Source: a virus. Taken from it: a DNA stretch of 64,000 bases. Shown here piece after piece: positions 50,144-64,000 of this stretch. The notes beneath the pieces were generated by a model. It made no database searches and was not told the DNA's origin. It saw only the letters and a program-made list of their open reading frames with translations. The translations under genes were made by a program, and so were the position numbers. The stretch is taken from positions 1-64,000 of the IMG/VR virus record IMGVR_UViG_3300025759_000063. The stretch is one strand, 5' to 3'. The number at the start of each line of letters is the position of its first letter. Position 1 is the stretch's first letter.

Positions 50144-50165
50144 TTTTTTTTAATGAATGTTTTAT

Positions 50166-50300
50166 TTAACCCCTACCCTGTCCGCGATACTTTTTCCTCT
50201 TTCCATTACGAGATGTTGCTGAAAGCAATGTGCGAGAAGAACGTCCTTGGCGAGTCTTTTTAGGTGCTCCTGGAACAAATGTAGTCTTATTATAAGCCAT
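50166..50300 (-). CDS. Small highly basic protein (44 aa)
   Basis: Manual translation MAYNKTTFVPGAPKKTRQGRSSRTLLSATSRNGKRKKYRGQGRG; AGGAG upstream. Confidence 0.7.
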   Translation of the reverse strand: MAYNKTTFVPGAPKKTRQGRSSRTLLSATSRNGKRKKYRGQGRG

Positions 50301-50316
50301 AAATTAAAATCTCCTA

Positions 50317-51093
50317 TCAAATTACACGAGTCTTTTCATGCCCAACACGAATTCGAGGATCGCACCAAATCTCAAATCCTTCTTCCTTTGCATCAAGACA
50401 GAATGAAACATCCTCTCCACACATATCTTGAACTGCACCAGATTCAAAGACTTGCATCTTAGGTGCAAACCATGGATACTCAAGATTCTCAAATACCCCG
50501 TTCTTAATTAATACCCAACCAAATCCTGTATAATCAACAGTAAATGGTTTACGACGCTTTGAAATACTCTCTACTGTTTCATGATTCATTACTCCACCAT
50601 TGTTACGGAAATCTTCTTCCTCCAACCAATGTGCGACAGATGTTGTGCGTCCATCTTCTGTGGCATACCATCCAGCAGTAATTTCATGCTCTGTTCCATC
50701 CTCAGAAAGTGCAAGATCGCACAATTGCCAGAACTTGTTAGTGTCAAAGACAATATCCGAGTCAATCCAAAGTTGATAATCATATTTCAACTTTCCATCC
50801 CATGGTACTTGCTTTGGACCTCTCAATACATTTGCTCCAAGACACTTGCAACGAGCAAAATTAACCATCGATGAATAATCTTGACTAATCTGAATACTCA
50901 TTCCATTCTGTACCATGTCAAAACATAATTGTACAAATGCTTTCAGAAAAATAAATGAACATCCACGACCAGGAAGACAGAATACAATTGACTTGCCTCG
51001 CATCCGCTCCTTGATTGCTGTATAATCCCACTCCTCTCCTTCTGGTTTACTGGTAGTGGGTGCTTTTGCTTTTACTGTAAATCCTTTTGCCAT
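50317..51093 (-). CDS. GT-A fold glycosyltransferase-like protein
   Basis: WIDSDIVF (DxD), GEDVSFC, VGHEK motifs. Confidence 0.75.
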   Translation of the reverse strand: MAKGFTVKAKAPTTSKPEGEEWDYTAIKERMRGKSIVFCLPGRGCSFIFLKAFVQLCFDMVQNGMSIQISQDYSSMVNFARCKCLGANVLRGPKQVPWDGKLKYDYQLWIDSDIVFDTNKFWQLCDLALSEDGTEHEITAGWYATEDGRTTSVAHWLEEEDFRNNGGVMNHETVESISKRRKPFTVDYTGFGWVLIKNGVFENLEYPWFAPKMQVFESGAVQDMCGEDVSFCLDAKEEGFEIWCDPRIRVGHEKTRVI

Positions 51094-51141
51094 AATTGAA
51101 ATTAACTTTCAGTTCAATTTTACTCCCTATTTAGGGTCTTG

Positions 51142-51378
51142 TCAATGTGACGAATTTAATTCTGCCATACGATTGACTGTGAGTTCCTCATATGATAGGT
51201 CATCTACACAATACTCAGTCTTGAGTAGGCCTACCATATTATTCAGTGTCTTCCATGTAACACTGAACTCATCCTCACTGATAGAATGAAATATACACCT
51301 ATCCTTTGCATATATGTGATATACCTTGACTTGCTGGTTCATAAAAAATACCTGAAAATTTTTTTCTTTCAGTCTCAT
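51142..51378 (-). CDS. Hypothetical protein
   Basis: 78-aa ORF with ATGA overlap to the upstream gene; true start may be 51342. Confidence 0.65.
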   Translation of the reverse strand: MRLKEKNFQVFFMNQQVKVYHIYAKDRCIFHSISEDEFSVTWKTLNNMVGLLKTEYCVDDLSYEELTVNRMAELNSSH

Positions 51379-51560
51379 TTCGATACTGCATTATATATCA
51401 CAATAATACAAAGTCCCAGTGCCGTAAACAAAGGAAATCGAAATACCTCGAAGAATCTCCCCGGATACCTTATTAACCACCCCGCAAAGATTACCTTCCA
51501 GAAATTCCAATACGGTCGGGGTTTTCTCATGTTTTTTTTCTCCGCGAAATTTTTTTTCAT
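51375..51560 (-). CDS. Small membrane protein
   Basis: PYWNFWKVIFAGWLIRYP plus a hydrophobic C-terminus. Confidence 0.6.
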   Translation of the reverse strand: MKKNFAEKKNMRKPRPYWNFWKVIFAGWLIRYPGRFFEVFRFPLFTALGLCIIVIYNAVSK

Positions 51561-51725
51561 TCTTTATATCTCTCTCGCGTTTTGTCACCTCTGTAGGTTA
51601 GGGTAGTGAGGGGTTTTTATAACGGCAGGGCGCCGCGGCGGTATAAACGACCCGGCATAATAACTGCCGAATACGCATACGAATAAGACTGCCCTAAGTA
51701 TCAACGAAGGGCAGTACAGTAAGCA

Positions 51726-51977
51726 TCAGTAATCGAACACGTCTGTGTCTAGTTCGATAGCGTTCACTGCGGGGTCAGCATACCTTACCCCATCAGGAGT
51801 TGCTACAGTGTTTAACTCTTTGAGTACACTCAGAAAATCCTCATAAGAATCGCATTTCTGAGCGAGATTATAAAGAAACTCATCATTCTGTATCCAGAGA
51901 GAAACATTCCAGGTTTCGTAGTTAGTCCAACCGTTGTAGGTGGTATCTGTGAGATTAGTTTGGAAAGTAGCAGTCAT
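51726..51977 (-). CDS. Hypothetical early protein
   Basis: YNGWTNYETWNVSLW motif; follows repeat copy 1. Confidence 0.75.
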   Translation of the reverse strand: MTATFQTNLTDTTYNGWTNYETWNVSLWIQNDEFLYNLAQKCDSYEDFLSVLKELNTVATPDGVRYADPAVNAIELDTDVFDY

Positions 51978-52021
51978 TTAGGAACGAATGAGAGGTTAAT
52001 TTAGTGGGGTTGTGCCCCTTA

Positions 52022-52050
52022 CACTACTAGAACACTTTAAGGGGCTCAGT
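52022..52050 (-). repeat. 29-bp module repeat, copy 1
   Basis: ACTGAGCCCCTTAAAGTGT-TCT-AGTAGTG. Confidence 0.95.
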
Positions 52051-52227
52051 AACTGTTACCACTTCGGGGAACGTCCAACGGAACTCATAAAGTAGCTGCT
52101 CATCACTAACACCTTCCAGATTTTCACGCATATAATCAGACAGTGCACATTCAAGGTCCGAAGGTGTCATTCCGTCGATAGTTGCCTCGACGAGAGCATC
52201 AATCAAAATTTGACGATTAGCAAGCAT
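52027..52227 (-). CDS. Hypothetical protein
   Basis: 66-aa ORF that reads into repeat copy 1 and stops inside it. Confidence 0.65.
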   Translation of the reverse strand: MLANRQILIDALVEATIDGMTPSDLECALSDYMRENLEGVSDEQLLYEFRWTFPEVVTVTEPLKVF

Positions 52228-52290
52228 TTGAGTTACTTAAGGGGAAACGATTTAAGACTGTGAGAGGCACCTAGAAGCGCCTCTAAGGTA

Positions 52291-52443
52291 TCAGAACTCC
52301 ACGGGGAGTAGGGTAGGACCATCGGCGGCATAATTACCCGATTCGCTACCCTCACCGTCGCTCACAAGTGCATTCAGAATCTCAAGAATTTGAGTGCCAG
52401 TGTTACCTTGACGCAGGGCGGAGAGCATCAGTGTCTTGGACAT
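52291..52443 (-). CDS. Hypothetical protein (50 aa)
   Basis: Manual translation MSKTLMLSALRQGNTGTQILEILNALVSDGEGSESGNYAADGPTLLPVEF; start 18 nt after repeat copy 2. Confidence 0.65.
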   Translation of the reverse strand: MSKTLMLSALRQGNTGTQILEILNALVSDGEGSESGNYAADGPTLLPVEF

Positions 52444-52461
52444 GTTTGAGTCGGTTGCTTA

Positions 52462-52490
52462 CACTACTGCTACACTTTATGTGGCTCAGT
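52462..52490 (-). repeat. 29-bp module repeat, copy 2
   Basis: ACTGAGCCACATAAAGTGT-AGC-AGTAGTG. Confidence 0.95.
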
Positions 52491-52499
52491 AACTGTTAC

Positions 52500-52673
52500 T
52501 CACCAACGGTCGGGTGTACTCAAGTCCTCAACATATGCCTCACACTTTTCCGCAGGTTCAAGCTTGAAGAGTTTCTCCCAATCAAGTTGATGAGGGTTAA
52601 AGTCTGCAAGTGCTTCAATCTCCAGAGTGATACGATAACGATGCTTCTGGGCCTGAAGATAACTGAGAGACAT
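52500..52673 (-). CDS. Hypothetical protein (57 aa)
   Basis: Manual translation MSLSYLQAQKHRYRITLEIEALADFNPHQLDWEKLFKLEPAEKCEAYVEDLSTPDRW; AAGGAG RBS and its own promoter. Confidence 0.75.
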   Translation of the reverse strand: MSLSYLQAQKHRYRITLEIEALADFNPHQLDWEKLFKLEPAEKCEAYVEDLSTPDRW

Positions 52674-52700
52674 GATTCGCTCCTTTGTTGTGACTTGAGT

Positions 52701-52729
52701 ATTCTAGGATATCGGCGCCGAAATGTCAA
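52701..52729 (-). promoter_or_regulatory. sigma70 promoter
   Basis: TTGACA-17 bp-TAGAAT on the minus strand. Confidence 0.8.
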
Positions 52730-52801
52730 GAATCGTCGGAGTATTTATCTGGCACGGTGACAATTTGCGGACCTTATGTGTGGGATTTTTGACCTTGTGG
52801 G

Positions 52802-52830
52802 TTGACAAAGTGCGGTCCTTATGTTATGCT
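52802..52830 (+). promoter_or_regulatory. sigma70 promoter firing into the tandem repeats (no plus-strand gene downstream)
   Basis: TTGACA (52802-52807), 17-bp spacer, TGn-TATGCT (52825-52830). Confidence 0.65.
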
Positions 52831-52839
52831 CGCTAAGAT

Positions 52840-52974
52840 CACAAGGTCCTGAGGGCTTTATACACAAGACTTGGAGGGCTTTATACTCAAGGGCCCACAA
52901 GGTCCTGAGGGCTTTATACACAAGACTTGGAGGGCTTTATACTCAAGGGCCCACAAGGTCCTGAGGGCTTTATA
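52840..52974. repeat. Tandem repeat: 2.4 copies of a 56-bp unit containing five 23-bp subunits CACAAG-N5-GAGGGCTTTATA (iteron-like)
   Basis: Unit CACAAGGTCCTGAGGGCTTTATA CACAAGACTTGGAGGGCTTTATA CTCAAGGGCC at 52840 and 52896, partial at 52952. Confidence 0.95.
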
Positions 52975-53001
52975 CAAGATTTCAAGAGCTTTTCAATGAG
53001 T

Positions 53002-53042
53002 TTTTCCACAATTATCAACACTTTTCCACAAGATGTGGAAAA
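53002..53042. promoter_or_regulatory. Cluster of DnaA-box-like 9-mers
   Basis: TTTTCCACA at 53002 and 53022, TTATCAACA at 53012, inverted TGTGGAAAA at 53034. Confidence 0.7.
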
Positions 53043-53093
53043 CTATAAAACTCTTAGCTATATTTTTTTAACCATTTATTAAATTAAAAACAT

Positions 53094-53126
53094 AAAAAAA
53101 AAAAAAAACACCCCTTGAGGGTGTTA
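53094..53126 (-). terminator. Terminator ending the upstream gene array before the origin-like locus
   Basis: AACACCCT-CAA-GGGGTGTT followed by a long T-run. Confidence 0.75.
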
Positions 53127-53276
53127 CTTAGGTCTTATAATCTCCGAGGTAGTGTATAGTACATCAGAGAGAAATTGTCTCGTTGGTGGTGACTTTGCAA
53201 TCAACACAGAGACTAGAATAAGAATCAAAATCTTCACTTGGTTAGCATAGAAGTTTGCAGATCTTGTCTTATTCAT
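53124..53276 (-). CDS. Small membrane protein (50 aa)
   Basis: Manual translation MNKTRSANFYANQVKILILILVSVLIAKSPPTRQFLSDVLYTTSEIIRPK. Confidence 0.6.
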   Translation of the reverse strand: MNKTRSANFYANQVKILILILVSVLIAKSPPTRQFLSDVLYTTSEIIRPK

Positions 53277-53278
53277 TC

Positions 53279-53611
53279 TCAACCCAGACGCATCGAAGAG
53301 AAGAAAGGAACGGTAGTTAGTCCTTGAACAGTGTTCATCTTAAGAAACCATTCTCCTGCTTTTTGGAATACACGATCACCACATTCTCCGTGTGCTTGAA
53401 GAATAGCATTCAGGCGAGACTTAGTGGTATTGGATTGCCAACCACCATCAAATAAGCGAAGAAAAGTCTCACCAATCTCTGCAATCTTTTTACCATGAAG
53501 GAATACAATAGAGAGATCATTTTGCTCATCATAGGTAACAACAGTATTGGCACTTTTCCAATTCTCGTTGTTAGTGATGGCATCATTCATTTGCTTTTCG
53601 ATCTTACGCAT
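53279..53611 (-). CDS. Conserved phage hypothetical protein
   Basis: MRKIE..M...W..ANT, LHG..IA, GWQSNTTKSRLNA; follows repeat copy 3. Confidence 0.8.
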   Translation of the reverse strand: MRKIEKQMNDAITNNENWKSANTVVTYDEQNDLSIVFLHGKKIAEIGETFLRLFDGGWQSNTTKSRLNAILQAHGECGDRVFQKAGEWFLKMNTVQGLTTVPFFSSMRLG

Positions 53612-53641
53612 TTGGTTTTTTTGTTTGAGGTTTCTGTCTTA

Positions 53642-53670
53642 CACTACTAGGACACTTTAAGTGGCTCAGT
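53642..53670 (-). repeat. 29-bp module repeat, copy 3
   Basis: ACTGAGCCACTTAAAGTGT-CCT-AGTAGTG. Confidence 0.95.
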
Positions 53671-53675
53671 GAGCA

Positions 53676-53921
53676 TTAGGAAATCAAATCTTCTAGAATC
53701 TCATCACCATAGCAATCGACAATTTCTTCCTTTAATTGTTGCTCATCATAGTCATTCAGATTCTCCATGATAACATCATAGGCCATAATCATCAGAGTTT
53801 TAGTATCCATATCATCAACAATCATCTGGGCATAATTATCACGGAGATTGGAGAGTTGATCAGGAGTAAGAGGCATGATTTCAGATTTGAGGATTTCGGT
53901 GTAAAGATTAGAGTCAGACAT
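53676..53921 (-). CDS. Hypothetical acidic protein
   Basis: 81-aa ORF; stop 5 nt before repeat copy 3. Confidence 0.7.
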   Translation of the reverse strand: MSDSNLYTEILKSEIMPLTPDQLSNLRDNYAQMIVDDMDTKTLMIMAYDVIMENLNDYDEQQLKEEIVDCYGDEILEDLIS

Positions 53922-54105
53922 TGGTCAGATCATTGATAGTGAGGACATGAACATCAGGAACAGATTCATCAAAATGTTCGGACCATTCTTGATACGATGC
54001 AACAGCATCATCAAGACGATTCTCATCTGTCAGTTTCATCACTTGTGCATGAATATCATCAAGAATGAGTGCCAACATCTTGTCTTTTTGATTGTTGTTC
54101 ATCAT
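53914..54105 (-). CDS. Hypothetical protein
   Basis: 63-aa ORF in a compact operon. Confidence 0.65.
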   Translation of the reverse strand: MMNNNQKDKMLALILDDIHAQVMKLTDENRLDDAVASYQEWSEHFDESVPDVHVLTINDLTNV

Positions 54106-54111
54106 CAGAAA

Positions 54112-54270
54112 TTAGAGAACTTGAAAGTCAGTGAAAATCTTAAGTTGTGTTGCAGTGAAGATTCTATCATCACTACATTTTGAATACTTTTCGCGTTCTA
54201 GATCAACATAGGTTTCGAGTGCACTTTGTATTGCGCGATACTCATCATTTGACAATTCCAATTTCAGCAT
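54112..54270 (-). CDS. Hypothetical protein
   Basis: Start reassigned to MLKLELS, 1 nt after the upstream stop. Confidence 0.6.
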   Translation of the reverse strand: MLKLELSNDEYRAIQSALETYVDLEREKYSKCSDDRIFTATQLKIFTDFQVL

Positions 54271-54271
54271 A

Positions 54272-54499
54272 TCAATCAAAACGGGATGAAACATCTTTTC
54301 CTGGGTTTTCATAGAATGAAACAGTCTCTGTAATCTGCGAAACATCATATGTGAATTGAACCATCTTTCCATCCTTCAGAATACGATACTGAGTCAATTC
54401 TTTCCAGAATGGTTGACCATTATCATCCCAACTCTGACGCTTTTCTTTGACAGGAACAATCTCATAATCCTGATTCGTTTTTAATGAGGTGTAAATCAT
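54272..54499 (-). CDS. Hypothetical protein
   Basis: 75-aa ORF starting 19 nt after repeat copy 4. Confidence 0.7.
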   Translation of the reverse strand: MIYTSLKTNQDYEIVPVKEKRQSWDDNGQPFWKELTQYRILKDGKMVQFTYDVSQITETVSFYENPGKDVSSRFD

Positions 54500-54518
54500 C
54501 TTTTTCGTTTGAACGTCT

Positions 54519-54547
54519 CACTACTAGGACACTTTAAGGGGCTCAGT
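54519..54547 (-). repeat. 29-bp module repeat, copy 4
   Basis: ACTGAGCCCCTTAAAGTGT-CCT-AGTAGTG; its TGA is the stop of 54543-54884. Confidence 0.95.
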
Positions 54548-54884
54548 AACCCTTACTCATCATGGAAAGTGCAGCATCCTGAGTGGTGCTATCTTGTGGC
54601 AGTTGTACTTTGCGAGCACAATCAATTGCATCAGCAAAGTTATCGAAACTACCGAAGTTCTTTTGATTGCCAACCCAGCAACCTTTGTACTCATAGATCA
54701 TTGCTTCGACAGAGAATACATCGACTTTGGTATCACGATTCACACCGTGCTTAATATAAACTTTTCCATCATTTCGAGTGTACTTATCAAAGGTGTTAGA
54801 CTTGAAAGTACGGGAGAAATCAGTCACAAACTCAGAGGTGAGATCAGTATTCTGAGCGAAGAGATTAGCAAAGTGAATTGTCAT
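54543..54884 (-). CDS. Hypothetical protein (single-gene module)
   Basis: 113-aa ORF bracketed exactly by repeat copies 5 and 4. Confidence 0.75.
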   Translation of the reverse strand: MTIHFANLFAQNTDLTSEFVTDFSRTFKSNTFDKYTRNDGKVYIKHGVNRDTKVDVFSVEAMIYEYKGCWVGNQKNFGSFDNFADAIDCARKVQLPQDSTTQDAALSMMSKGY

Positions 54885-54907
54885 TTTTGAATTTCGTTTG
54901 AACCTTA

Positions 54908-54936
54908 CACTACTGGTACACTTTAAGTGGCTCAGT
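54908..54936 (-). repeat. 29-bp module repeat, copy 5
   Basis: ACTGAGCCACTTAAAGTGT-ACC-AGTAGTG. Confidence 0.95.
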
Positions 54937-54941
54937 AGACA

Positions 54942-55184
54942 TTAGAGAGTGAACGTTTGCTCTACAATCACATCAAAATCTTCCGTCATTTTGACATAAT
55001 TCCACTCACCAATATCCTCTCCTTCTTGATAACAATGAATCAGATCATTTGCATCAGTCTTGACATAACAACCATCATCAAAGTTATCCTCATCGAGAAC
55101 ATAACCAGATGCAATCAGTGCTTCAGTAAAAGTCATTTTGTTGTGAAGATAAGTCTTAATCAGTGACATTTTTTCGTTATTCAT
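54942..55184 (-). CDS. Hypothetical protein
   Basis: 80-aa ORF; alternative start at 55136. Confidence 0.7.
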   Translation of the reverse strand: MNNEKMSLIKTYLHNKMTFTEALIASGYVLDEDNFDDGCYVKTDANDLIHCYQEGEDIGEWNYVKMTEDFDVIVEQTFTL

Positions 55185-55528
55185 CGGAGATAAAGAAACC
55201 CACCGTATTGATCACAAATAGTGGGATTCTCAGTGAGTTGCTCAACATAGAATCGAATACCCTTTGCAGGTGCTTTTACACTGGCAGGTTTGTAACATGC
55301 ACCAGTGTTATTCTCCACAAACATATATGCAGAGCGTCCATGTTTACGTTCACCACCAGAGACCAAATAAGTCATCAGTTTGATGTACTTACGACCGAAA
55401 TCTGCTTCGACTTGGTAATAAGTATCATGACCAGATTCGATGGCATTAACTTTCCATTGGTCATTCAATTGCTCAATCAGAGTATCAACAAGGAACTCAG
55501 ATTTGGTTTGATTCAGAATAGCAGACAT
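55181..55528 (-). CDS. Conserved phage hypothetical protein
   Basis: GRKYIKL...FVE..TG..YKPAS.KAPAKGIRF...GGFLYLR. Confidence 0.78.
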   Translation of the reverse strand: MSAILNQTKSEFLVDTLIEQLNDQWKVNAIESGHDTYYQVEADFGRKYIKLMTYLVSGGERKHGRSAYMFVENNTGACYKPASVKAPAKGIRFYVEQLTENPTICDQYGGFLYLR

Positions 55529-55565
55529 TTTCTTTTGATTATAATTTAAGTGTTGAATTGTGCAA

Positions 55566-55817
55566 TCAGCAGGCACAGGTAAGTGCAGAATTGAACAGTT
55601 GCGGTTCGGTGTGCATATCAGTCACAATGTAACCATAACCCTCAACACGGGAATCTACCTCATACTGGAAATCTTTCTTGGTAATGTAGCGAATAGATTG
55701 CTTGCAGTTAGAGAAAGTCAGAATCTTGAGAATATGACGATTGGAGATAGTTCCATCCGCATACTTTACGGGATAGAAATCAACAATCATGTTAGCATCT
55801 TTGGAAGTGAGTTGCAT
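55566..55817 (-). CDS. Hypothetical protein
   Basis: 83-aa ORF with AAGGAG RBS after repeat copy 6. Confidence 0.75.
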   Translation of the reverse strand: MQLTSKDANMIVDFYPVKYADGTISNRHILKILTFSNCKQSIRYITKKDFQYEVDSRVEGYGYIVTDMHTEPQLFNSALTCAC

Positions 55818-55842
55818 TTTTCTCCTTTGGGTTTCTGTCTTA

Positions 55843-55871
55843 CACTACTGGAACACTTTAAGGGGCTCAGT
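55843..55871 (-). repeat. 29-bp module repeat, copy 6
   Basis: ACTGAGCCCCTTAAAGTGT-TCC-AGTAGTG. Confidence 0.95.
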
Positions 55872-55876
55872 GAGCA

Positions 55877-56020
55877 CTACTTGAAAACTGCTGTGCATCC
55901 TACAATCTTTGCCTTAGGATTACGTGCTAATGCAGTCTCACGCGCATCCTGATAGTTTACAGCTTCCACAATCTCTGAGAATACCTTACCTGCAACATAC
56001 AAATCAACTTTAACTCTCAT
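55877..56020 (-). CDS. Small cyanophage-type protein (47 aa)
   Basis: Manual translation MRVKVDLYVAGKVFSEIVEAVNYQDARETALARNPKAKIVGCTAVFK. Confidence 0.7.
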   Translation of the reverse strand: MRVKVDLYVAGKVFSEIVEAVNYQDARETALARNPKAKIVGCTAVFK

Positions 56021-56029
56021 GTGCTTAAA

Positions 56030-56227
56030 TTATAGAGTTTGCCATGATTGTGCTTCCTTGACATCAGAATCATAATACTTCTGCATTATGCTGTCAATGA
56101 TAGGATACCACTCTTCATTAGAACTTGGATACCCACATTCTCTTGCTTCACGAAGAAACCTTAAAATGCAAGTTTCCTCATTAGGAGTAAGGTCAACGCG
56201 GTTCAAACTGTAAGTCCAGATGTTCAT
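56030..56227 (-). CDS. Hypothetical protein
   Basis: 65-aa ORF in a compact operon. Confidence 0.65.
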   Translation of the reverse strand: MNIWTYSLNRVDLTPNEETCILRFLREARECGYPSSNEEWYPIIDSIMQKYYDSDVKEAQSWQTL

Positions 56228-56230
56228 GAT

Positions 56231-56392
56231 TTAGACAGAAGGAGTAACAGAAACTTCTTTAATGTTTAGTCCACAGAGTTGATTGTAGACACGATTATTG
56301 ATAAGGTCACAAGCACGTTTTGCACTCGATTTCTCATACCAAACGGTCACACATCCGTCGTTGGTCTCAACTCGAACTCGATAGTTTTTCAT
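56231..56392 (-). CDS. Hypothetical protein
   Basis: Start reassigned to MKNYRVRVET; TACAAT about 30 nt upstream. Confidence 0.65.
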   Translation of the reverse strand: MKNYRVRVETNDGCVTVWYEKSSAKRACDLINNRVYNQLCGLNIKEVSVTPSV

Positions 56393-56508
56393 ACTTTTGG
56401 AATTGAATGTGCTTTGTTGATGATTGTAACCCATTCGGTTGGGGGTGATAGTTTGTTGGAAACTTTCACCCACCGACCCTTAAACTTAACGATTGTGTAT
56501 TTCATAAA

Positions 56509-56700
56509 TCACCACTCAGTTTGATGTGAACGATAATTCATCAGATAAGTTAGACAATCGTCTGCCTTTTTGAGTTCCTTTTCTTTCTGATACCTATCAG
56601 AGTGATATACACTCAAGCGGTCAACTTCTTTGAGAAGATTGAGTCGAAAGAAAGTGAACTCATCATCAGCAAAAAGTGTGCGGGGGTCTTGTGCTTTCAT
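56509..56700 (-). CDS. Hypothetical protein
   Basis: 63-aa ORF starting 18 nt after repeat copy 7. Confidence 0.65.
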   Translation of the reverse strand: MKAQDPRTLFADDEFTFFRLNLLKEVDRLSVYHSDRYQKEKELKKADDCLTYLMNYRSHQTEW

Positions 56701-56718
56701 GTTTGAGTATGCTTCTTA

Positions 56719-56747
56719 CACTACTGGGACACTTTAAGGGGCTCAGT
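56719..56747 (-). repeat. 29-bp module repeat, copy 7
   Basis: ACTGAGCCCCTTAAAGTGT-CCC-AGTAGTG. Confidence 0.95.
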
Positions 56748-56752
56748 AACTA

Positions 56753-56923
56753 TCAGGCAACTGCATCCTCATCACTCACAAGAGAAAGATCTGGCAGGTT
56801 ATTTACACGCGACTTCATACGGTTGTGCTTAGAAATTGTCCATCCGTTAGCATCAGCATCGTGCAGAACTCCATCTAGTTGACGACGCTCAGATTCGGTG
56901 TGAAAATGCCTTTCTTGGTTCAT
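56753..56923 (-). CDS. Hypothetical protein
   Basis: Start reassigned to MNQERHF, downstream of a sigma70 promoter. Confidence 0.65.
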   Translation of the reverse strand: MNQERHFHTESERRQLDGVLHDADANGWTISKHNRMKSRVNNLPDLSLVSDEDAVA

Positions 56924-56950
56924 GATTTCAAATCTCAAGAGAACATAAAG

Positions 56951-56979
56951 ATTGTACCAGATTTTATTCACTCTGGCAA
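56951..56979 (-). promoter_or_regulatory. sigma70 promoter
   Basis: TTGCCA-17 bp-TACAAT on the minus strand. Confidence 0.65.
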
Positions 56980-56988
56980 TGGTAGCTT

Positions 56989-57246
56989 TTACCTACCGCA
57001 AGGCACCTCTTCGTACCACGTTCTGACATAACCAGGACGCCATCTGTTGCCAGGAACATATTCTTCTCTGCGAATACGTTTGATACAATATCTGTGATAG
57101 AAGTGGTCTCTGTAATTATCACGCTTTCTTTCATGGCGATGATCACTATCCTCATGAACAAATGGCTCCCAGAACTGTTGCCAGGTGATAGCATTTGCAG
57201 GGATGGGAGAGAGTGCTAAGAGCACAGCAGTTAGTAACAGTTTCAT
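56989..57246 (-). CDS. Putative exported small protein
   Basis: Signal-peptide-like MKLLLTAVLLALSPIPANA; His/Arg-rich middle; C...EEYVPG...EVPC tail. Confidence 0.7.
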   Translation of the reverse strand: MKLLLTAVLLALSPIPANAITWQQFWEPFVHEDSDHRHERKRDNYRDHFYHRYCIKRIRREEYVPGNRWRPGYVRTWYEEVPCGR

Positions 57247-57268
57247 GGTTAAAATAGACTCCATTTAT

Positions 57269-58174
57269 TTAACTCCAAACCTTTTCCATGTTGAAGTTTG
57301 CATAACTAAACTCTTCACGGTCAACAACCTTGAAAGTCCCATAATTGTTAGAGATAACATAACCTTCATGGCAAACAAACGTATTACCAATCATACAAGC
57401 AATGTCATCGGTTTCTTTAATGAACAAGAACAAATCATCCTTCATAGATGCAACCAACTTCCAAAGCCGTAGCAGGTTGATGTCACATTCACATTTTTCT
57501 GCAATTTCATCCTCAACAATGGGTTGACCCTCACGGATGCAGGCATTGATTGCTTTTTTGATTTGTGTTGCCTTGCGAGCACTTACAAAATCACATAGAG
57601 TGGACATTTGACGGGCAAATGCTGCAACATCTGCCAAATCTTCACGGTATGGGTTTAACTCAACCTCGGGTTGAATAAACAGACAATTTTGGGTGCTGGG
57701 AAGGTCAAGAACCAAAGGATAAGCATCAACCTCACGCAAATCATTCCCACCACTATAAACAGTGTGTGGGGCTACAATTATATCTTGAGAGATAAACTCT
57801 GGGAAGACATATGTCAAAGTGTTGGGGCGATAGGTATCAGAACCACCGACACCAATCCAATCACCTTGGACAATAGTTTTGGTGCGAGGAAGATACTTAA
57901 AGCAAAGATGCAGAATATCTGCAACTCTACCCTCATAGAACTTATCAATCTCCCGATGAGAATGTGCAATCTTGATTTTTACTTTGTTAAAGGCACTTTT
58001 TGTAGCCACAAACCATTTCCCATTTGCAGGATTTGTTCCCCAAACCAAGCTAGGACTCCCATCAATTTTTGTGCTGATGATAGAATCAGGGTCCGAGAAC
58101 CAATCAAGAACCGAAAGGTCACCCGTTAGGATAGAATCTTCTACGTGTTCAAGGTGGATATTTTGTGCCATCAA
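57269..58174 (-). CDS. DUF6267-like protein with ligase/nucleotidyltransferase-type motifs
   Basis: NIHLEHVED, TKIDG, QGD, HEGYV, FKVVDREEFS. Confidence 0.75.
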   Translation of the reverse strand: MMAQNIHLEHVEDSILTGDLSVLDWFSDPDSIISTKIDGSPSLVWGTNPANGKWFVATKSAFNKVKIKIAHSHREIDKFYEGRVADILHLCFKYLPRTKTIVQGDWIGVGGSDTYRPNTLTYVFPEFISQDIIVAPHTVYSGGNDLREVDAYPLVLDLPSTQNCLFIQPEVELNPYREDLADVAAFARQMSTLCDFVSARKATQIKKAINACIREGQPIVEDEIAEKCECDINLLRLWKLVASMKDDLFLFIKETDDIACMIGNTFVCHEGYVISNNYGTFKVVDREEFSYANFNMEKVWS

Positions 58175-58187
58175 TTTACCATCGCTA

Positions 58188-58216
58188 CACTACTAGGACA
58201 CTTTAAGGGGCTCAGA
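58188..58216 (-). repeat. 29-bp module repeat, copy 8
   Basis: TCTGAGCCCCTTAAAGTGT-CCT-AGTAGTG; its TGA is the stop of 58212-58679. Confidence 0.93.
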
Positions 58217-58679
58217 TAGAAACAATCTCTTTAATGTAATAGGTGGAAGAATTGTAGCATTCATATTGCTTTTCTTTCTTATACTTTGTCCGATGAACTA
58301 TTGCTTTAATATTACTATATGTGTGACCCTTATTGCGTGCCCAAGTTGATAACTGCTTTACAATTTCTTCTGTCCCATCTCTAAAAATTATCTTATAAGT
58401 CTTTGCGTTAGGATTATTTTCTTTTAGTTGTTTTAGGTTTGCCTTTTTACCCTCTTCACTATGAACATTCACCCGTCCTCTATACCAACCATCTGGGATT
58501 TCATCACATTTGACCATCTTATTATCTGTTCCATTTGTTATCCAAATCTTACCTTTATTTGGAGGTGGTATATTCATTTCTTGTGGTGACAATAGCTCAT
58601 AATCATCTTCCATCAAGATGAAATCTTTTCCAGATACGTTGAAACATTCGTTCAACGATTGAACGCTTACTTTATTCAT
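58212..58679 (-). CDS. Homing-endonuclease-related (NUMOD-like) DNA-binding protein without an evident nuclease domain
   Basis: KGKIWITNG...IPDGWYRGR and NPNAKTY...LSTWAR segments; no GIY-YIG or HNH motif seen. Confidence 0.6.
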   Translation of the reverse strand: MNKVSVQSLNECFNVSGKDFILMEDDYELLSPQEMNIPPPNKGKIWITNGTDNKMVKCDEIPDGWYRGRVNVHSEEGKKANLKQLKENNPNAKTYKIIFRDGTEEIVKQLSTWARNKGHTYSNIKAIVHRTKYKKEKQYECYNSSTYYIKEIVSI

Positions 58680-58685
58680 TCTGCT

Positions 58686-58777
58686 TTATGTGTCGCAGTA
58701 TTATTTATACAAGAAAAGGGGCATTTCTGCCCCCATTCTCTTTGCTTAGTTGCGACACATAAGCATCATTATTTATA
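58686..58777 (-). promoter_or_regulatory. Tandem late promoters, 12-bp inverted repeat and internal terminator; possible small RNA
   Basis: TATAAATA at 58770-58777 and 58702-58709; arms 58751-58762 and 58686-58697; GGGGCA-GAAA-TGCCCC-TTTTCTT at 58711-58733. Confidence 0.75.
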
Positions 58778-59071
58778 TCACTCAACAATGTCGTTGTAAG
58801 TATTTTGAACTTTACCAACAAACTCTTGACGCTGTTCGGGAGTCAGAAGATTGTTGCGAACAAAATTAATCAAAGTGAAAAGTCCAACAAGTTGCATTAT
58901 ACCATTGAACACAGGAATTGCATCCACAACCATCACAACCTCATGAATTATCAGTTGTGCAACAATTACAACAAAGAGAATAGTTGCGGAGATTCCAACT
59001 TTTTTGAGAACATCGTTGGTAACATTCTCATTGACGAAGGTCTTGATTTGTGCGATTTTGTCGTTCATCAT
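58778..59071 (-). CDS. CAAD/CurT (curvature thylakoid)-like membrane protein
   Basis: Two hydrophobic segments and the pattern VDAIPVFNGIMQLVGL...FVRNNLL...RQEF, matching the CAAD signature by eye. Confidence 0.75.
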   Translation of the reverse strand: MMNDKIAQIKTFVNENVTNDVLKKVGISATILFVVIVAQLIIHEVVMVVDAIPVFNGIMQLVGLFTLINFVRNNLLTPEQRQEFVGKVQNTYNDIVE

Positions 59072-59113
59072 TTCAAAAGTTTAATAGTTTTTGTGGGAGC
59101 AGTGTGCTCCTCA

Positions 59114-59142
59114 CACTACTGGAACACTTTAAGGGGCTCAGT
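59114..59142 (-). repeat. 29-bp module repeat, copy 9
   Basis: ACTGAGCCCCTTAAAGTGT-TCC-AGTAGTG; its TGA is the dam stop. Confidence 0.95.
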
Positions 59143-59956
59143 AGACAGCAATCAATTCATTTGCTTTCTTTCTACTTCCACCATTTGCTGCAATAGTTCT
59201 AGACACTTGAATTGGATAGATTGTGGCATTTTTGTATAGTTCTCTGGTGATGGAAACGTCATTATTAGATACAATCACTTTAATACCCTTTGCAGCAAGA
59301 GATTCTGCAAGTTGTGCTAGTTTAACCTGCTGGTCTGATGTAAACCCATCAGTCGCATAGCTTGTGAAGTTTGATGTATCAGATGCAGGAACATATGGTG
59401 GGTCAAAATAGACAACATCACCTGCTTCCAAATCTTCATAAAGAGATAAATCTTCAAATGAAAGTGATGTGAACCGCACCAATTGTTTGGTGAGGAAATA
59501 CATCCTAAATTTCATCATCTCTTCAGATGGACAAGTTGGTTTTTCATATTTACCAAAAGGAACATTAAATCCACCATTTTTATTGTATCTTGACAGTCCA
59601 TTAAAGCAGTGGCGATTCAAATAGATGAATAGTCTTGCCCTTTCTTTAGAATCTGTTGATTGATTGAAGTGTTCTCTCAAATCAAGATATGACTCTTTAG
59701 TATTATTCTCTGGAATGAACAGTTCTTTACAATACTGAATAAAACTATCCTCATTTGGATCTAACAAATTCTGATAAATTGCCACCAAATCTTTATTCAC
59801 ATCATTGAGAATATACTGCTCTGCTGATGTGTTCAGTGCAACAGCAAGGCTCCCACCAAAGGGTTCACAATAACGCTTTGGACTACCAATATGGGGAGTA
59901 AGATGGGGAAGGACTCTATATTTGTTTCCTGCCCACTTTAGAAAGGGTTTATGCAT
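59138..59956 (-). CDS. dam: Dam-family (D12 class) N6-adenine DNA methyltransferase
   Basis: KPFLKWAGNK, EPFGGS, YLNRHCFNGLSRYNKNGGFNVPFG, DPPY. Confidence 0.93.
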   Translation of the reverse strand: MHKPFLKWAGNKYRVLPHLTPHIGSPKRYCEPFGGSLAVALNTSAEQYILNDVNKDLVAIYQNLLDPNEDSFIQYCKELFIPENNTKESYLDLREHFNQSTDSKERARLFIYLNRHCFNGLSRYNKNGGFNVPFGKYEKPTCPSEEMMKFRMYFLTKQLVRFTSLSFEDLSLYEDLEAGDVVYFDPPYVPASDTSNFTSYATDGFTSDQQVKLAQLAESLAAKGIKVIVSNNDVSITRELYKNATIYPIQVSRTIAANGGSRKKANELIAVY

Positions 59957-61352
59957 ACAAATAATTTTTTAGAATAACACGGAGTGTAGTATGTGTTCCT
60001 GTTTTCTTGATACTACCAAGTTTAATAAGATCACTAGCAGAAGAAAGATAACAATTTCTTGGATACTCAAACTCATTAGTATTATCGCACCATTCATTCA
60101 AATCTTCAAGTGTAAAAGATTTTTTAAGTCCATTCTGCATAGCATAAATGAACACCAGACGCAGGAAATTCAGTTCCTTATACATGTGCTCATTTCTATT
60201 TTTAGAGCCCAAAATGTTAGCACCACCATTAACATAGATGTTATGGTCACAGACATCTGCATTTTTACCAGCATCTCTTTCAATGTAAAAGAGTTCCCAC
60301 AAAATCCAATCAATGGCAGTCAATCGTAGTTTCCAAACATCTGCGGCACGATTACGAATCCAGGAAGAAAAATTCTTTTCTCCTTGCCAGTTGATTGTAG
60401 AACCATTGCGAACTTTGTTTCTACCAAACAATTTGTCTTGCCAATAATCTTCAACATTACTATCTTTGATGATTTTAATCTCAGAAATAAGTTGATTCAA
60501 AAACTGATTAAAATATGGTGCCTTACCATTCATATATGCTGCTGTCATGTCAACACAGAGAGCACGATAGATTTTGCTATACGTTGACCCGTTGTTGATA
60601 ATTTGAGAAGTTATTGCAGGTACATTTTCAAAAACAGGTAGATATGGTTTCACGACATCTGTCATTGTATCTACATCTTTAGGAACAGTATTATTGTCAA
60701 TCAAACTGATAGGTCCGTCCATGTCATTTAGCAACCATGGAGTTAAATTTGATTGTCCAGTTGTTGCATTTAAGTAACCGAAACCATTCAGAACAGAGGT
60801 ATAGTTATCGTTCTTAGATTTACCAGATGCAGTATGATCAATGGTACGATAAATTCGATTATATTCATCGTTGCTAGAAATTAGAACAATTTCATATCGA
60901 AGTGTTGATTCTGCCTCAGGAACACAATCTGAGAGAAGATAATCCTTTGGAATATCTAACTCACCATTAAGAAGTTTGCATAGGGTAACAATAAGAGTGT
61001 TACCATTCATCTGCTTAGGTGTCCATGCTTTAAAAGTATTGCCAAAATTATCTACAAAATCAGTGGTTGAAACCACTATCATATTTTCACGATTTGCTGT
61101 GTCATGATTATAAAGAACATATCTTCCATTCTCATCTTTCTGTAAGAAGTAAGTTCGATAAACATCACCTTCTGCCCTGTCTTCGCTATTTCTTTGAAGT
61201 GAAACTGGGTCTAAAACTTTGCTGTAAGAAGTGCCTCTTTTCTCAACCAATCCATTATAGAAAGGGAGATTTACATGGTTAGAGGATTCTCCATTTTCGT
61301 GTATTTGTTTTGCGAGCAGCACAATTTGCTCGATAAGAGTTTGAGTCAACAT
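59949..61352 (-). CDS. Large hypothetical protein, possibly with a divergent ParB/DGQHR-like N-terminal domain
   Basis: About 467-aa ORF; ATG at 61352 with GGAG RBS; overlaps the dam start; QMNGNT segment. Confidence 0.7.
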   Translation of the reverse strand: MLTQTLIEQIVLLAKQIHENGESSNHVNLPFYNGLVEKRGTSYSKVLDPVSLQRNSEDRAEGDVYRTYFLQKDENGRYVLYNHDTANRENMIVVSTTDFVDNFGNTFKAWTPKQMNGNTLIVTLCKLLNGELDIPKDYLLSDCVPEAESTLRYEIVLISSNDEYNRIYRTIDHTASGKSKNDNYTSVLNGFGYLNATTGQSNLTPWLLNDMDGPISLIDNNTVPKDVDTMTDVVKPYLPVFENVPAITSQIINNGSTYSKIYRALCVDMTAAYMNGKAPYFNQFLNQLISEIKIIKDSNVEDYWQDKLFGRNKVRNGSTINWQGEKNFSSWIRNRAADVWKLRLTAIDWILWELFYIERDAGKNADVCDHNIYVNGGANILGSKNRNEHMYKELNFLRLVFIYAMQNGLKKSFTLEDLNEWCDNTNEFEYPRNCYLSSASDLIKLGSIKKTGTHTTLRVILKNYLYA

Positions 61353-61414
61353 AGATTTTCTCCGTGTATAGATTTGGAGTGTCAAAACGGGTATAGATTT
61401 GTTTTGACTGAACT

Positions 61415-61448
61415 TATTTAGTATAAACTATTTTCAGTTAGTTGTCAA
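61415..61448 (-). promoter_or_regulatory. sigma70 promoter overlapping a late-like CTAAATA element
   Basis: TTGACA (61443-61448), 17-bp spacer, TATACT (61420-61425); CTAAATA at 61415-61421. Confidence 0.75.
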
Positions 61449-61451
61449 CTA

Positions 61452-62039
61452 TCAGAAAAGATTGCGTCCAAATTGACCACAAAGATAAAATGCCATTCCC
61501 TTATCCTTAAGAGTCACACCTGCAAATTTCAGAGGAACATAGTGACCGTTGGTTTTAGATGCTTTGGTGCGAATCTGAAGCAATCCGTTAGGGCCAGTGA
61601 TGGTATTCAATTCACTTTCCTCATCAAATGCCGTGCGAATATGGTTACAAATGAATTCGTAATCCTCTTTCAGTTCCCGATAGTGCTCAGAATGAGTTTC
61701 TGAATTTAGAAGTTCAGTTCCCACATAATCGTTGGTGCGAGTGAAACCAACGTAGATGGTCTGATTGAGTTTCTCAGCAACTTTACTTTCAGCGAAAGGA
61801 ACATTATCCTCAATAATTTCGCTAAGGCAGTGCTTTAACTGTGTCACAGCAATAGATTCACCAACCGTGAACGTCTTAAGTTCACCGTCCACAAGATCTT
61901 TGAGGTTGGAGCTGTTAGGAATGCCCAGAGCAGTTTCAATCAGTTGTCCGCGAGAACCTTTGTTCTTGCCAGGTTTGGCATATGCAGAGAAATCAGTTAC
62001 TTTCAATTTAGCAAAAGTTTGAATAGTTGTGAGAGTCAT
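61452..62039 (-). CDS. MutH/Sau3AI-family PD-(D/E)XK endonuclease
   Basis: KGSRGQLIETALG...KDL..GELKT, LQIRTKA and AFYL align by eye with MutH KGWIGVLLE...QDF..GVELKT, LQIRPKA and GFYL; start reassigned to 62039, after repeat copy 10. Confidence 0.8.
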   Translation of the reverse strand: MTLTTIQTFAKLKVTDFSAYAKPGKNKGSRGQLIETALGIPNSSNLKDLVDGELKTFTVGESIAVTQLKHCLSEIIEDNVPFAESKVAEKLNQTIYVGFTRTNDYVGTELLNSETHSEHYRELKEDYEFICNHIRTAFDEESELNTITGPNGLLQIRTKASKTNGHYVPLKFAGVTLKDKGMAFYLCGQFGRNLF

Positions 62040-62056
62040 TGCAAGTTTGTTCCTTG

Positions 62057-62085
62057 TACTACTACAACACTTTAAGTGGCTCAGT
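62057..62085 (-). repeat. 29-bp module repeat, copy 10
   Basis: ACTGAGCCACTTAAAGTGT-TGT-AGTAGTA. Confidence 0.92.
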
Positions 62086-62089
62086 ATCA

Positions 62090-62308
62090 TCAATCAATCG
62101 GAAGTTTAGCAACACTCTTACCTCTACGATGTTTTTGAATAAACTTGCGGGCAGATTCCTCCGTTGTGCACACTTTAAGCTGCTTGCCATTGTGAATGAT
62201 CATCAATCGGTTACAGTAAGGAACTGCTGCATAGATTCCACCATCAACAATAAATCCATTTTGGGGTGGGTTTGAGTCAAGAATGCTTGAATTAGTTGGT
62301 TGGTTCAT
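62090..62308 (-). CDS. Cyanophage-type hypothetical protein (72 aa)
   Basis: Start reassigned to MNQPTNS; YAAVP...IIHNGKQLKVC...SARKFI. Confidence 0.7.
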   Translation of the reverse strand: MNQPTNSSILDSNPPQNGFIVDGGIYAAVPYCNRLMIIHNGKQLKVCTTEESARKFIQKHRRGKSVAKLPID

Positions 62309-62426
62309 GATACTTTCAAAAAAATCGTGATTTTTGTTGGGGCGGATGCCCCATAGGGTCTGTGCAGTGAAATTGCAAAAAAATCGGGGTTTTACCCCTG
62401 ATGGCCACTTGAGTCTTGGGTGAGAC

Positions 62427-62867
62427 TCACCGCCTGTAGATGATGGTGATGGTTTTTCCATCATCCACTATACTCTCTAGAGTGCATTCTTTCAAGAGTT
62501 CTGCATTGTCGTGATTTGCTCTGGTTTTGATACGATGACACTCCTTGCAGAGTAATTGGCATTTCTCAACTTCTGGAATAATTCTAGACATATCCCAGTC
62601 GATGATTTTTCCAATAGTGTATGCTTTGTCTGCTCGGTTGATGTGGTCAAACTGAAGGTTTTCTGTCGTTCTACACCCTACACAGACTCCACCCAGATGC
62701 TCAACAAGTTGCTGCCTCTTTTTCTTGCGAAGTTCTCTGAGTTTTTCTGTCTTGTAAGCTCTATTTTTCTTTGCCCATTCACTGTTCCTTTCAAGTTTTT
62801 CCTCCCTGTAAGTTTCATCATTTTGGTATTTGTTTCGGTGCCAATCTGCACCAGTGTTCTTACTCAT
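62427..62867 (-). CDS. HNH homing endonuclease
   Basis: GGVCVGC..TENLQFDHIN...KCQLLCKECHRIKT. Confidence 0.88.
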   Translation of the reverse strand: MSKNTGADWHRNKYQNDETYREEKLERNSEWAKKNRAYKTEKLRELRKKKRQQLVEHLGGVCVGCRTTENLQFDHINRADKAYTIGKIIDWDMSRIIPEVEKCQLLCKECHRIKTRANHDNAELLKECTLESIVDDGKTITIIYRR

Positions 62868-62870
62868 AAG

Positions 62871-62907
62871 AATGACACAACTGATTTATTTATATAGTTG
62901 TGTCATT
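62871..62907 (-). promoter_or_regulatory. Late promoter inside a 12-bp inverted repeat that covers the HNH translation start region
   Basis: Arms AATGACACAACT (62871-62882) and AGTTGTGTCATT (62896-62907); TATAAATA at 62887-62894. Confidence 0.8.
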
Positions 62908-62911
62908 TCAA

Positions 62912-64000
62912 TCACCTCCGCACAACAGAATCCAACATCTCACCTTTATGAAATACGGTATCAACAACGTTCTGCAATGCTCGCTCGGTGCTGATACCAA
63001 CCTGGGAATACACAGGTACAACACAAAGACCAAACTTCTTGGTATCGCTACCCAAACGCAGGACACGGCCGATGGTTTGAACCATTTCGATGGTGTCCAT
63101 ATTGCGAAGGAAAACAACAGTCTCCAATTCGCTCACGTTGATACCCTCAGAGAGAATAGAACGGTGAAGAACAACAAACTTCTTGCTAGGATCTTTACCC
63201 CAAGCATTGAGAGTGTTGAAGAACTCCTCTCGGTTAGCTTTCTTGCCGTCAATTACAGCACCAGTCTTGCTAGTGATGTAGAGATAAGAGTAACCACGTT
63301 GTTGTAATTCAGAAGCAAAATCAGTGAATCCCATCAGGTTCATCAGTTGCTTGCTAGTCTTAACACAAACAAGAATCTTCTTGGTGTCAGTGTCATCAAT
63401 CGTGTCCAAAACATTGGCACAATCAATGTTAGGATTGATTTGTTTTGCCTTGTGAATGTCAAACTTCTTTGCCTGAATCTTAGGAGGAATGATGTAACCA
63501 CCCTCCACCAGTTCAGGTGCAGAAACGCGACAAATAATGTCACCATAAACCTCAACATCGTTCATACCAGGTTTGTTGATAGTGACAGAAGTCTTGCGGG
63601 TTGCAGTAAAGAAGTAGCAACGTTCTGCATCGCCAGAGAAGAACTCTGTAGGAGCAAAGAAGTTACGCTTTACAGAATTGTGTGCCTCATCAAAGTAAAT
63701 GGTGTTCACTTCGATGTCTGCTTGACGCAAACGATCAAGAGAATTGTAGGTCGTGAAGATAATGCAAGCATCACCAGCCGTGCGGGCAACATTAGCAAAC
63801 ATATGAATTTGCTTGGGGTTGGTGCTGCTGAAGTGAGAAGTTTCACCACTGTGAGCGTGCATTACGTGCACATTCTTGGTGTCGATAACCTCAAGAAATT
63901 CGCTACAGAGTTGCTCTGCAAGCAAAATACGAGGGCAAACAACAACAATGGTGGTGGCACCAATGTTGTCAATCTGTGCCTTAGCATCAGTAATCATTGT
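62912..64000 (-). CDS. SF2 DEAH-box helicase (type III Res-like), 5' end probably outside the window
   Basis: VVCPRILLAEQL, FTTYNS, FDEAHN, FTAT, LSEGIN, QTIGRVLR; Walker A is not in the window. Confidence 0.88.
   Translation of the reverse strand, partial: TMITDAKAQIDNIGATTIVVVCPRILLAEQLCSEFLEVIDTKNVHVMHAHSGETSHFSSTNPKQIHMFANVARTAGDACIIFTTYNSLDRLRQADIEVNTIYFDEAHNSVKRNFFAPTEFFSGDAERCYFFTATRKTSVTINKPGMNDVEVYGDIICRVSAPELVEGGYIIPPKIQAKKFDIHKAKQINPNIDCANVLDTIDDTDTKKILVCVKTSKQLMNLMGFTDFASELQQRGYSYLYITSKTGAVIDGKKANREEFFNTLNAWGKDPSKKFVVLHRSILSEGINVSELETVVFLRNMDTIEMVQTIGRVLRLGSDTKKFGLCVVPVYSQVGISTERALQNVVDTVFHKGEMLDSVVRR

Follow-up and report, generated by a model that had tools for sequence, protein, structure and literature searches.

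Ten co-oriented copies of a 29-base repeat, ACTGAGCCMCWTAAAGTGT-NNN-AGTAGTR, stand ahead of genes between 52 and 62 kb of a 64,000-base stretch of viral DNA, which comprises bases 1 to 64,000 of the 112,201-bp IMG/VR record IMGVR_UViG_3300025759_000063 and is called the window below. Because of its position, its orientation on the gene strand, its conservation throughout a family of related elements, the start codons that abut it in relatives, and the in-register −35 hexamer of one copy, we consider it probable that the repeat is a lineage-specific transcription start signal (promoter) of a hyperplastic small-gene region, whose copies also recombine with one another. By its sequence, the repeat is a member of a two-part family in which a shared 3′ half is joined to a 5′ block of ~11 nucleotides (nt) that is private to each lineage. 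Its best DNA matches, SynMITS9220M01, S-SM2, S-CAM9, and S-SCSM2R, mark the virus as a T4-like cyanomyovirus (Kyanoviridae); the estimated completeness of the record is 52%.

Copies of the repeat and its two-part family

A pattern search of the window returned ten matches, all at the coordinates of the preliminary description (Table 1), which had omitted that they lie on the minus strand, the strand of the genes. Only the copy at 58188 departs from the 29-base pattern, by one mismatch, and the other nine are exact; the chance expectation is zero, with no match across 100 dinucleotide shuffles. Both the pattern search and a weight-matrix scan found no copy in the first 51 kb, as had been described, and the scan of the full record, a check proposed at the same time, added eight copies beyond the window (64119, 64672, 64952, 65877, 66557, 67606, 73543, and 74761), again exclusively on the minus strand. 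The record thus holds 18 copies, those outside the window spanning 64.1 to 74.8 kb, and none elsewhere. In several of the later copies, TATAGTATAAG takes the place of the AGTAGTGTAAG found in the first ten. Conserved bases continue for ~5 nt past the 29-mer (GTAAG), and weak conservation extends upstream as well.

The described fit between the repeats and their neighboring open reading frames (ORFs) was likewise borne out by the ORF table. The next start codon lies 13 to 45 nt downstream of the ten copies, and the preceding stop codon lies 0 to 9 nt upstream. The TGA of the repeat is itself the stop of the upstream ORF at copies 4, 8, and 9 (ORF ends at 54543, 58212, and 59138), while at copy 1 the upstream stop falls within the repeat (52027). 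Elsewhere this stop is found exactly 5 nt before the repeat (copies 3, 5, 6, and 7), 9 nt before it (copy 2), or 4 nt before it (copy 10).

Among IMG/VR cyanomyovirus contigs the shared 3′ half reads AAAGTGT-N3-(T/A)(A/G)TAGT-RTRAG, often followed by CAMCA, and at least 10 different 5′ blocks were found joined to it. SynMITS9220M01 carries TTACTCACCTCT-AAAGTGT-CCC-TATAGT ahead of about a dozen small genes, S-SM2 carries AAGGGGGGTCGYCT-AAAGYGT-CCC-TATAGT, and the loci L018 and L019 have a TGGGCCC-N3-AAAGTGT variant. All copies of a given genome agree in the 5′ block and in AAAGTGT but differ in N3 and in the first two bases of the second box. When 12 orthologous pairs of copies were compared with a relative that is 91% identical, the M position of the block had changed three times and N3 five times, with 0 changes at 120 fixed private-block sites. 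Because M and N3 changed between orthologous copies while the 120 fixed sites did not, the private block is upheld by selection and not by homogenization.

The family has a narrow distribution. The true copies of each complete genome are confined to one small-gene stretch of 13 to 16 kb and to one strand, with 12 copies in S-SM2, 12 in SynMITS9220M01, and 10 in a 184-kb relative (G001). Among ~50,700 phage records, the canonical core occurs only in S-SM2, in SynMITS9220M01, and in one single-cell-amplified virus record, the first two being the only isolates that have the element. It is absent from S-CAM9, Syn9 contains no match at up to 3 mismatches, and the matches in P-TIM40 show no excess over a reversed-pattern control. 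A metagenome scan for contigs that begin at the element yielded just 2 loci, too few to be informative.

Two further properties were noted. All private blocks contain a purine run and, after it, a C-rich run, and several (L018, L081/L107, L051, and L112) contain 6-bp palindromes (GGGCCC, GGTACC, GGATCC, and GGGGCC); the GAGCCMC of the present lineage is not palindromic. Stops in all three frames are common in this lineage (11/17), in G001 (10/11), and in L035 (9/9) compared with 13% of shuffles, and were rejected as a family feature since the S-SM2 and L092 lineages lack the property.

A candidate promoter and its rivals

Start codons in the relatives constrain where a transcript could begin. 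Among 151 distinct instances of the element, an ATG follows directly after ...TAGT in 52, of which 45 have a frame of 40 or more open codons from that ATG, compared with 2 for the only other possible frame. The conserved N terminus of DUF6267 proteins (MQNKHLEHPED) begins at such an abutting ATG in at least nine lineages. Since start codons abut the element, the transcript must begin at or before that ATG, inside the element. TATAGT and TAGTRT are thereby excluded as −10 boxes, because the start would then lie 7 nt further on and the abutting in-frame ATGs would precede the transcript. We infer that TAAAGT is the remaining −10 candidate, with A at −11, T at −7, and a start at the purine of (T/A)(A/G)TAGT; the leaders so implied would measure 0 to 5 nt in the abutting cases and 15 to 26 nt in most others. 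In one copy outside the window (74761 to 74785), TAAAAT fills the TAAAGT position and is preceded by a perfect TTGACA at a distance of exactly 17 nt, and some L100 and L107 copies match the −35 hexamer at 5/6 or 6/6 positions at a distance of 16 to 18 nt.

Many unrelated genes with an abutting ATG (L024, L030, L035, L092, and others) begin ATG-A(G/A)C-(A/G)MM-ACT. The conserved downstream part of the element seems to constrain the start of the coding sequence in these genes.

The promoter would thus be built as follows. The private block, ACTGAGCCMCT in this lineage, would occupy about −23 to −13, the shared TAAAGT box would serve as the −10 element and be followed by the free 3-nt stretch, and there would be no −35 hexamer. 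Transcription would start at the purine of the second box, giving a conserved first-transcribed stretch of TAGT-RTRAG-CAMCA. The shared half is probably read by the host RNA polymerase, and a factor differing between lineages may read the private block; such a reader is proposed because the block is under selection in every genome. General phage recombination would occasionally cross between the 18 near-identical, co-oriented copies, so that modules are deleted, inserted, or moved.

Several observations weigh against a promoter of this kind. Matches to the −35 hexamer at 16 to 18 nt are no better than at other offsets (192 instances), the element has no sigma-70 consensus match, and 0 of 35 consensus sites in 50 to 64 kb fall on a repeat. 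In S-SM2, the T at −7 is missing from 7 of the 12 copies, which read TAAAGC. Ordinary sigma-70 promoters show no sequence specificity in the spacer, which is fully conserved here. A second in-frame ATG follows 4 to 6 codons later in 23 of the 45 genes with an open abutting frame, whose first ATG may be tolerated and not used. The search for a reader was also negative. We compiled 41 protein families that are common to G001, SynMITS9220M01, and S-SM2 and absent from Syn9, a criterion too weak to name a candidate, and the ten of these clade-specific small proteins that were scanned gave no DNA-binding lead in Pfam. The record has a single Sigma70_r2-like match (4340 to 4480, minus strand, in an open frame of 180 amino acids [aa]), presumably the gp55 late sigma homologue, and no other sigma-like gene; each compared cyanophage, Syn9 included, has one such gene. 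A search with PF00940 (single-subunit RNA polymerase) found no match in S-SM2, SynMITS9220M01, G001, or the present record, and none in its control genomes either.

Boxes of the host regulators NtcA and LexA (cyanobacterial), the Pho box, and that of CRP were compared with the element by eye, and none fits.

An alternative that we regard as unlikely places the function of the element in RNA: long messages would issue from a few ordinary promoters, and the element would be a cutting, stabilizing, or translation-control site, such as an RNase E site or a RegA-like operator. This would account for the conservation that runs into the would-be leader (RTRAG-CAMCA), for the start codons that abut a third of the instances, and for the lack of a −35 box and of a sigma-70 consensus match; the genes lie close together in one orientation, terminators are few, and near-consensus host-type promoters of the region could supply long transcripts. 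The distance from element to start codon, however, ranges from 0 to ~70 nt, which is odd for a translation operator, and no Rfam family matches. The element folds no better than shuffled sequence, five of six z-scores lying between −0.8 and +1.3 and the exception, copy 9 (z = −2.7), owing its score to a hairpin downstream of the element. Moreover, the private block is exchanged as a whole from lineage to lineage, the element contains no partner that would compensate, and the perfect in-register −35 of one copy speaks for a promoter.

A hairpin or cruciform was considered separately and rejected: the inverted repeats of this lineage (yTACTG/CAGTAG and CACTT/AAGTG) fold no better than shuffles and their arms are not kept elsewhere. 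A 7-bp stem is confined to the GGGGGGACGCC lineage, as judged by inspection.

It is improbable, in our estimate, that the host polymerase reads the element as an ordinary promoter without the help of a private reader, the 5′ block being only a spacer kept uniform by copy-paste and gene conversion. Recombination between copies does occur, T4-type phages recombine very actively, and no reader protein came out of the search. Gene conversion would nevertheless have homogenized N3 too, which lies between two invariant boxes and varies freely per genome, and the orthologous copies of the 91%-identical relative differ at M and N3 and at none of the fixed block sites.

If the repeat is a lineage-specific promoter, it is tempting to go one step further, although we do so only tentatively, and to suppose that a subclade of T4-like cyanophages uses a private promoter code. 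The host polymerase would act on the shared core and a phage factor, possibly delivered with the DNA, on the ~11-nt block, which would amount to T7-style orthogonality without a phage polymerase and would yield leaderless or near-leaderless messages. T4-like cyanophages start their infection program without the Alt, ModA/B, MotA, and AsiA of T4 (PMC2984593). A signal half that is invariant in a genome yet exchanged from one lineage to the next suggests a missing specificity factor, and S-SM2 and SynMITS9220M01, which are both cultured and bear different private blocks, offer a direct route to it. The abutting start codons further suggest leaderless early messages.

Recombination between copies and comparison with known systems

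Recombinant junctions inside the repeats are found among close relatives. The comparison genome G002 is ~91% identical overall and 93 to 97% identical in most blocks of the array, from which it differs by nine indels of at least 40 bp. One of these is a clean copy-to-copy event: G002 lacks, in register, the 521 bp (with a 139-aa gene) between copies 64672 and 64119, and its single hybrid element combines the 5′ flank of copy 64672 with the 3′ part of copy 64119, the junction lying inside CTGAGCCACTTAAA. The loci L016 and L017 lack 3,834 bp, also in register, between copy 10 (the upstream member) and copy 8 (the downstream member), whose flanks are joined in L016. The 139-aa gene belongs to a family, F5, whose members stand behind the element in different phages, at three distinct positions of the array. 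Several replacements are one sided, with homology stopping 20 to 41 nt past the element. Homology to G002 stops 20 nt downstream of copy 10 and gives way to ~2 kb of different genes, and G002 has a 246-bp insertion that begins 20 to 41 nt downstream of copy 6.

At least five of the nine indels relative to G002 have neither end at an element, which weighs against a special role of the repeats in exchange, and breakpoints are not enriched at elements over gene boundaries because about a third of these boundaries carry one. The comparison of relatives that the preliminary description had named as a check therefore gave a mixed answer, with two in-register and several one-sided junctions at repeats and most indels elsewhere. 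Its proposal that the repeat may act as a crossover site stands in the sense of passive homology, as the two in-register indels and the relocated F5 gene attest, and loses the implication of preferred breakpoints. These data support the view that general homologous recombination, which in T4-type phages needs no site-specific recombinase, uses the repeats as one of several seams. Such exchange would explain part of the reshuffling of accessory genes in abundant marine viruses.

That the element is instead a dedicated recombination site, either integron attC-like or a target or end of a homing or mobile element that moves cassettes, seems very improbable: the in-register indels and the gene found at three element-headed positions would fit, while no integrase or homing-endonuclease domain was found by Pfam on the ten larger ORFs of 49 to 64 kb, to which that scan was limited, no hairpin is conserved in the element, most of the counted indels lie away from it, and its constant gene orientation immediately before gene starts fits an expression signal. 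The comparison to an integron-like array, made in the preliminary description, was not upheld. Unlike integrons, the array shows no attC-type fold, no IntI was found among those larger ORFs, and its modules are not promoterless, each having a start-signal-like element of its own at its head.

Of the systems described so far, the nearest is that of the promoter-early stem-loops (PeSLs) of the T4-type phages RB49/phi1, T4/PST, and KVP40/nt-1 (Arbiol et al. 2010, PMC2839356; Comeau et al. 2014, PMC4122927), whose defining parts are a stem-loop terminator and a promoter of sigma-70 consensus. Like PeSLs, the repeats are intergenic cassettes of a hyperplastic region, co-oriented and placed directly between consecutive small genes, after one stop and before the next start. 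Some indel or replacement junctions between close relatives fall at them (here two in register and several one sided, with at least five of the nine indels relative to G002 elsewhere). Unlike PeSLs, they have neither a sigma-70 consensus promoter (−35 and −10, only the TAAAGT −10-like box being present) nor a stable stem-loop, and they contain a lineage-private invariant block of a kind not described for PeSLs in the available portions of the two papers. Cyanophages go unmentioned in the 2014 paper (PMC4122927), and a study of cyanophage S-PM2 considered shuffling of the PeSL type unlikely in that phage (PMC4503421). We regard the element as a probable phage start-signal cassette, present in repeated copies that serve also as a seam for recombination, in which one half is lineage private and under selection. 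Should the element be only a strong host-type promoter, it would be an ordinary, though tidy, cyanophage counterpart of PeSLs.

By biology, the closest system is the “novel regulatory element” of early genes that Doron et al. reportedly described in 2016 in the cyanophages Syn9 and P-TIM40. Syn9 is likewise a T4-like cyanophage with the same neighborhood of small genes around a Dam methylase and a UvsW-type helicase, and the signals resemble each other in not being sigma-70-like and in occurring beside host-like promoters on other genes. In contrast to the present virus, Syn9 and P-TIM40 lack the element. The small-gene region of Syn9 has a GTGaCAC...AAGTGTCCAC dyad upstream of gp63, gp68, and gp75 that shares with the element only the half-site AAGTGTCC, and this half-site lies ~30 nt upstream of a separate −10-like box. 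AAAGTGT was not found as a cyanophage motif in the literature searched, a comparison that did not extend to the motif of Doron et al. The preliminary description had proposed an early promoter/operator and had linked it to the Syn9 element; the promoter part is favored by the evidence from position, orientation, conservation, abutting starts, and one in-register −35, and the shared identity was not sustained. Early timing is suggested by synteny with the small-gene region of Syn9 and by the work reported in 2016.

Two other promoter classes share part of the logic. Promoters of the T7 group (T7, T3, SP6, and K11) combine a common initiation part (...TATAG) with an upstream specificity part that differs among phages and is identical within a genome, which resembles the shared initiation half and private upstream half proposed here. 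The shared half agrees with the SP6 promoter at 12 of 17 positions when the two are aligned by hand on TATAG. Unlike the T7 group, the four genomes searched yielded no match to the phage polymerase family, as noted above with its controls. T4 middle promoters consist of a MotA box and a −10 element and are read through sigma appropriation by MotA and AsiA; like them, the element would have a −10 box without a usable −35 and a phage-specific conserved upstream box, which in T4 a phage factor reads in place of the −35. The MotA box, unlike the block of the element at about −13 to −23, is centered near −30 and is not lineage private. Cyanomyoviruses lack motA and asiA (PMC2984593).

Other signals and genes of the small-gene region

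The Pfam matches on the ten larger ORFs of 49 to 64 kb are a UvsW-type helicase, a Dam-type (D12) methylase, DUF6267, and CAAD; many small ORFs are without assignment. The small-gene stretch of relatives adjoins the baseplate genes gp25, gp6, and gp7. The G+C content is 37 to 42% in the small-gene array (50000 to 64000) compared with 27 to 33% in 22000 to 50000, the region of baseplate genes and of a giant gp7-like gene.

Table 1. Positions of the repeat copies and of other signals in the window
Feature	Coordinates	Strand	Remarks
Copy 1, last of the array	52022–52050	minus	upstream ORF 52027–52227 ends inside; heads ORF 51726–51977 (83 aa)
Copy 2, CACATAAAG variant	52462–52490	minus	heads ORF 52291–52443 (50 aa)
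Copy 3	53642–53670	minus	heads ORF 53279–53611 (110 aa)
Copy 4	54519–54547	minus	TGA is stop of ORF 54543–54884; heads ORF 54272–54499
Copy 5	54908–54936	minus	heads ORF 54543–54884 (113 aa)
Copy 6	55843–55871	minus	heads ORF 55566–55817 (83 aa)
Copy 7	56719–56747	minus	heads ORF 56509–56700 (63 aa)
Copy 8, one mismatch (TCTGAG...)	58188–58216	minus	heads DUF6267 gene (57269–58171)
Copy 9	59114–59142	minus	TGA is stop of Dam-type methylase gene (59138–59956); heads CAAD-domain ORF 58778–59071
Copy 10, ACTGAGCCACTTAAAGTGT-TGT-AGTAGTA	62057–62085	minus	heads ~190-aa ORF starting near 62033
TTGACA-17-TATACT, near-consensus host-type promoter	61420–61448	minus	ahead of 478-aa ORF without the element
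Other TTGACA-17-TAnnnT promoters (11/12 matches)	56069–56097, 52701–52729, 51117–51145	minus	gene strand
Terminator hairpin (58734–58717), then TATAAATA (58708–58701)	58701–58734	minus	heads 155-aa ORF 58212–58679

To judge from what precedes the genes of the region that lack it, the element is a third, separate class of signal, because either near-consensus sigma-70 promoters or TATAAATA, the consensus of T4-type late promoters, stand ahead of those genes. Near-consensus host-type sites number 12 on the gene strand of the whole record, compared with a mean of 3.6 (maximum, 7) in shuffles. Each of the four sites in 51 to 62 kb has 11 of 12 matches; two stand 23 to 34 nt ahead of called ORFs without the element, and the start codon nearest to each of the remaining two belongs to a smaller ORF. 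The hairpin, TATAAATA, and the 155-aa ORF, which has no Pfam match, form a 557-bp unit within 58212 to 58777 that G002 lacks, inserted here immediately upstream of copy 8. The unit has the appearance of an add-on gene that is complete in itself and expressed late.

Terminator-like hairpins occur several times on the gene strand, the strongest at 62398 to 62386, 58734 to 58717, and 53125 to 53107. None of those found adjoins a repeat, so the earlier statement that no terminators separate gene and repeat was nearly right, the region itself having several hairpins.

The stretch 52700 to 53126 (~420 bp) is poor in ORFs and contains three 56-bp tandem repeats (52840 to 53007), two of them identical, together with the strong gene-strand terminator at 53125 to 53107 and the near-consensus host-type promoter at 52729 to 52701. 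The alignment with G002 breaks inside the tandem repeats, which suggests a difference in their copy number. A second unit, in 62427 to 62911, consists of a 146-aa ORF without a Pfam match followed by the terminator-like hairpin at 62398 to 62386; it is absent from G002, L016, and L017, and its junctions lie away from the element.

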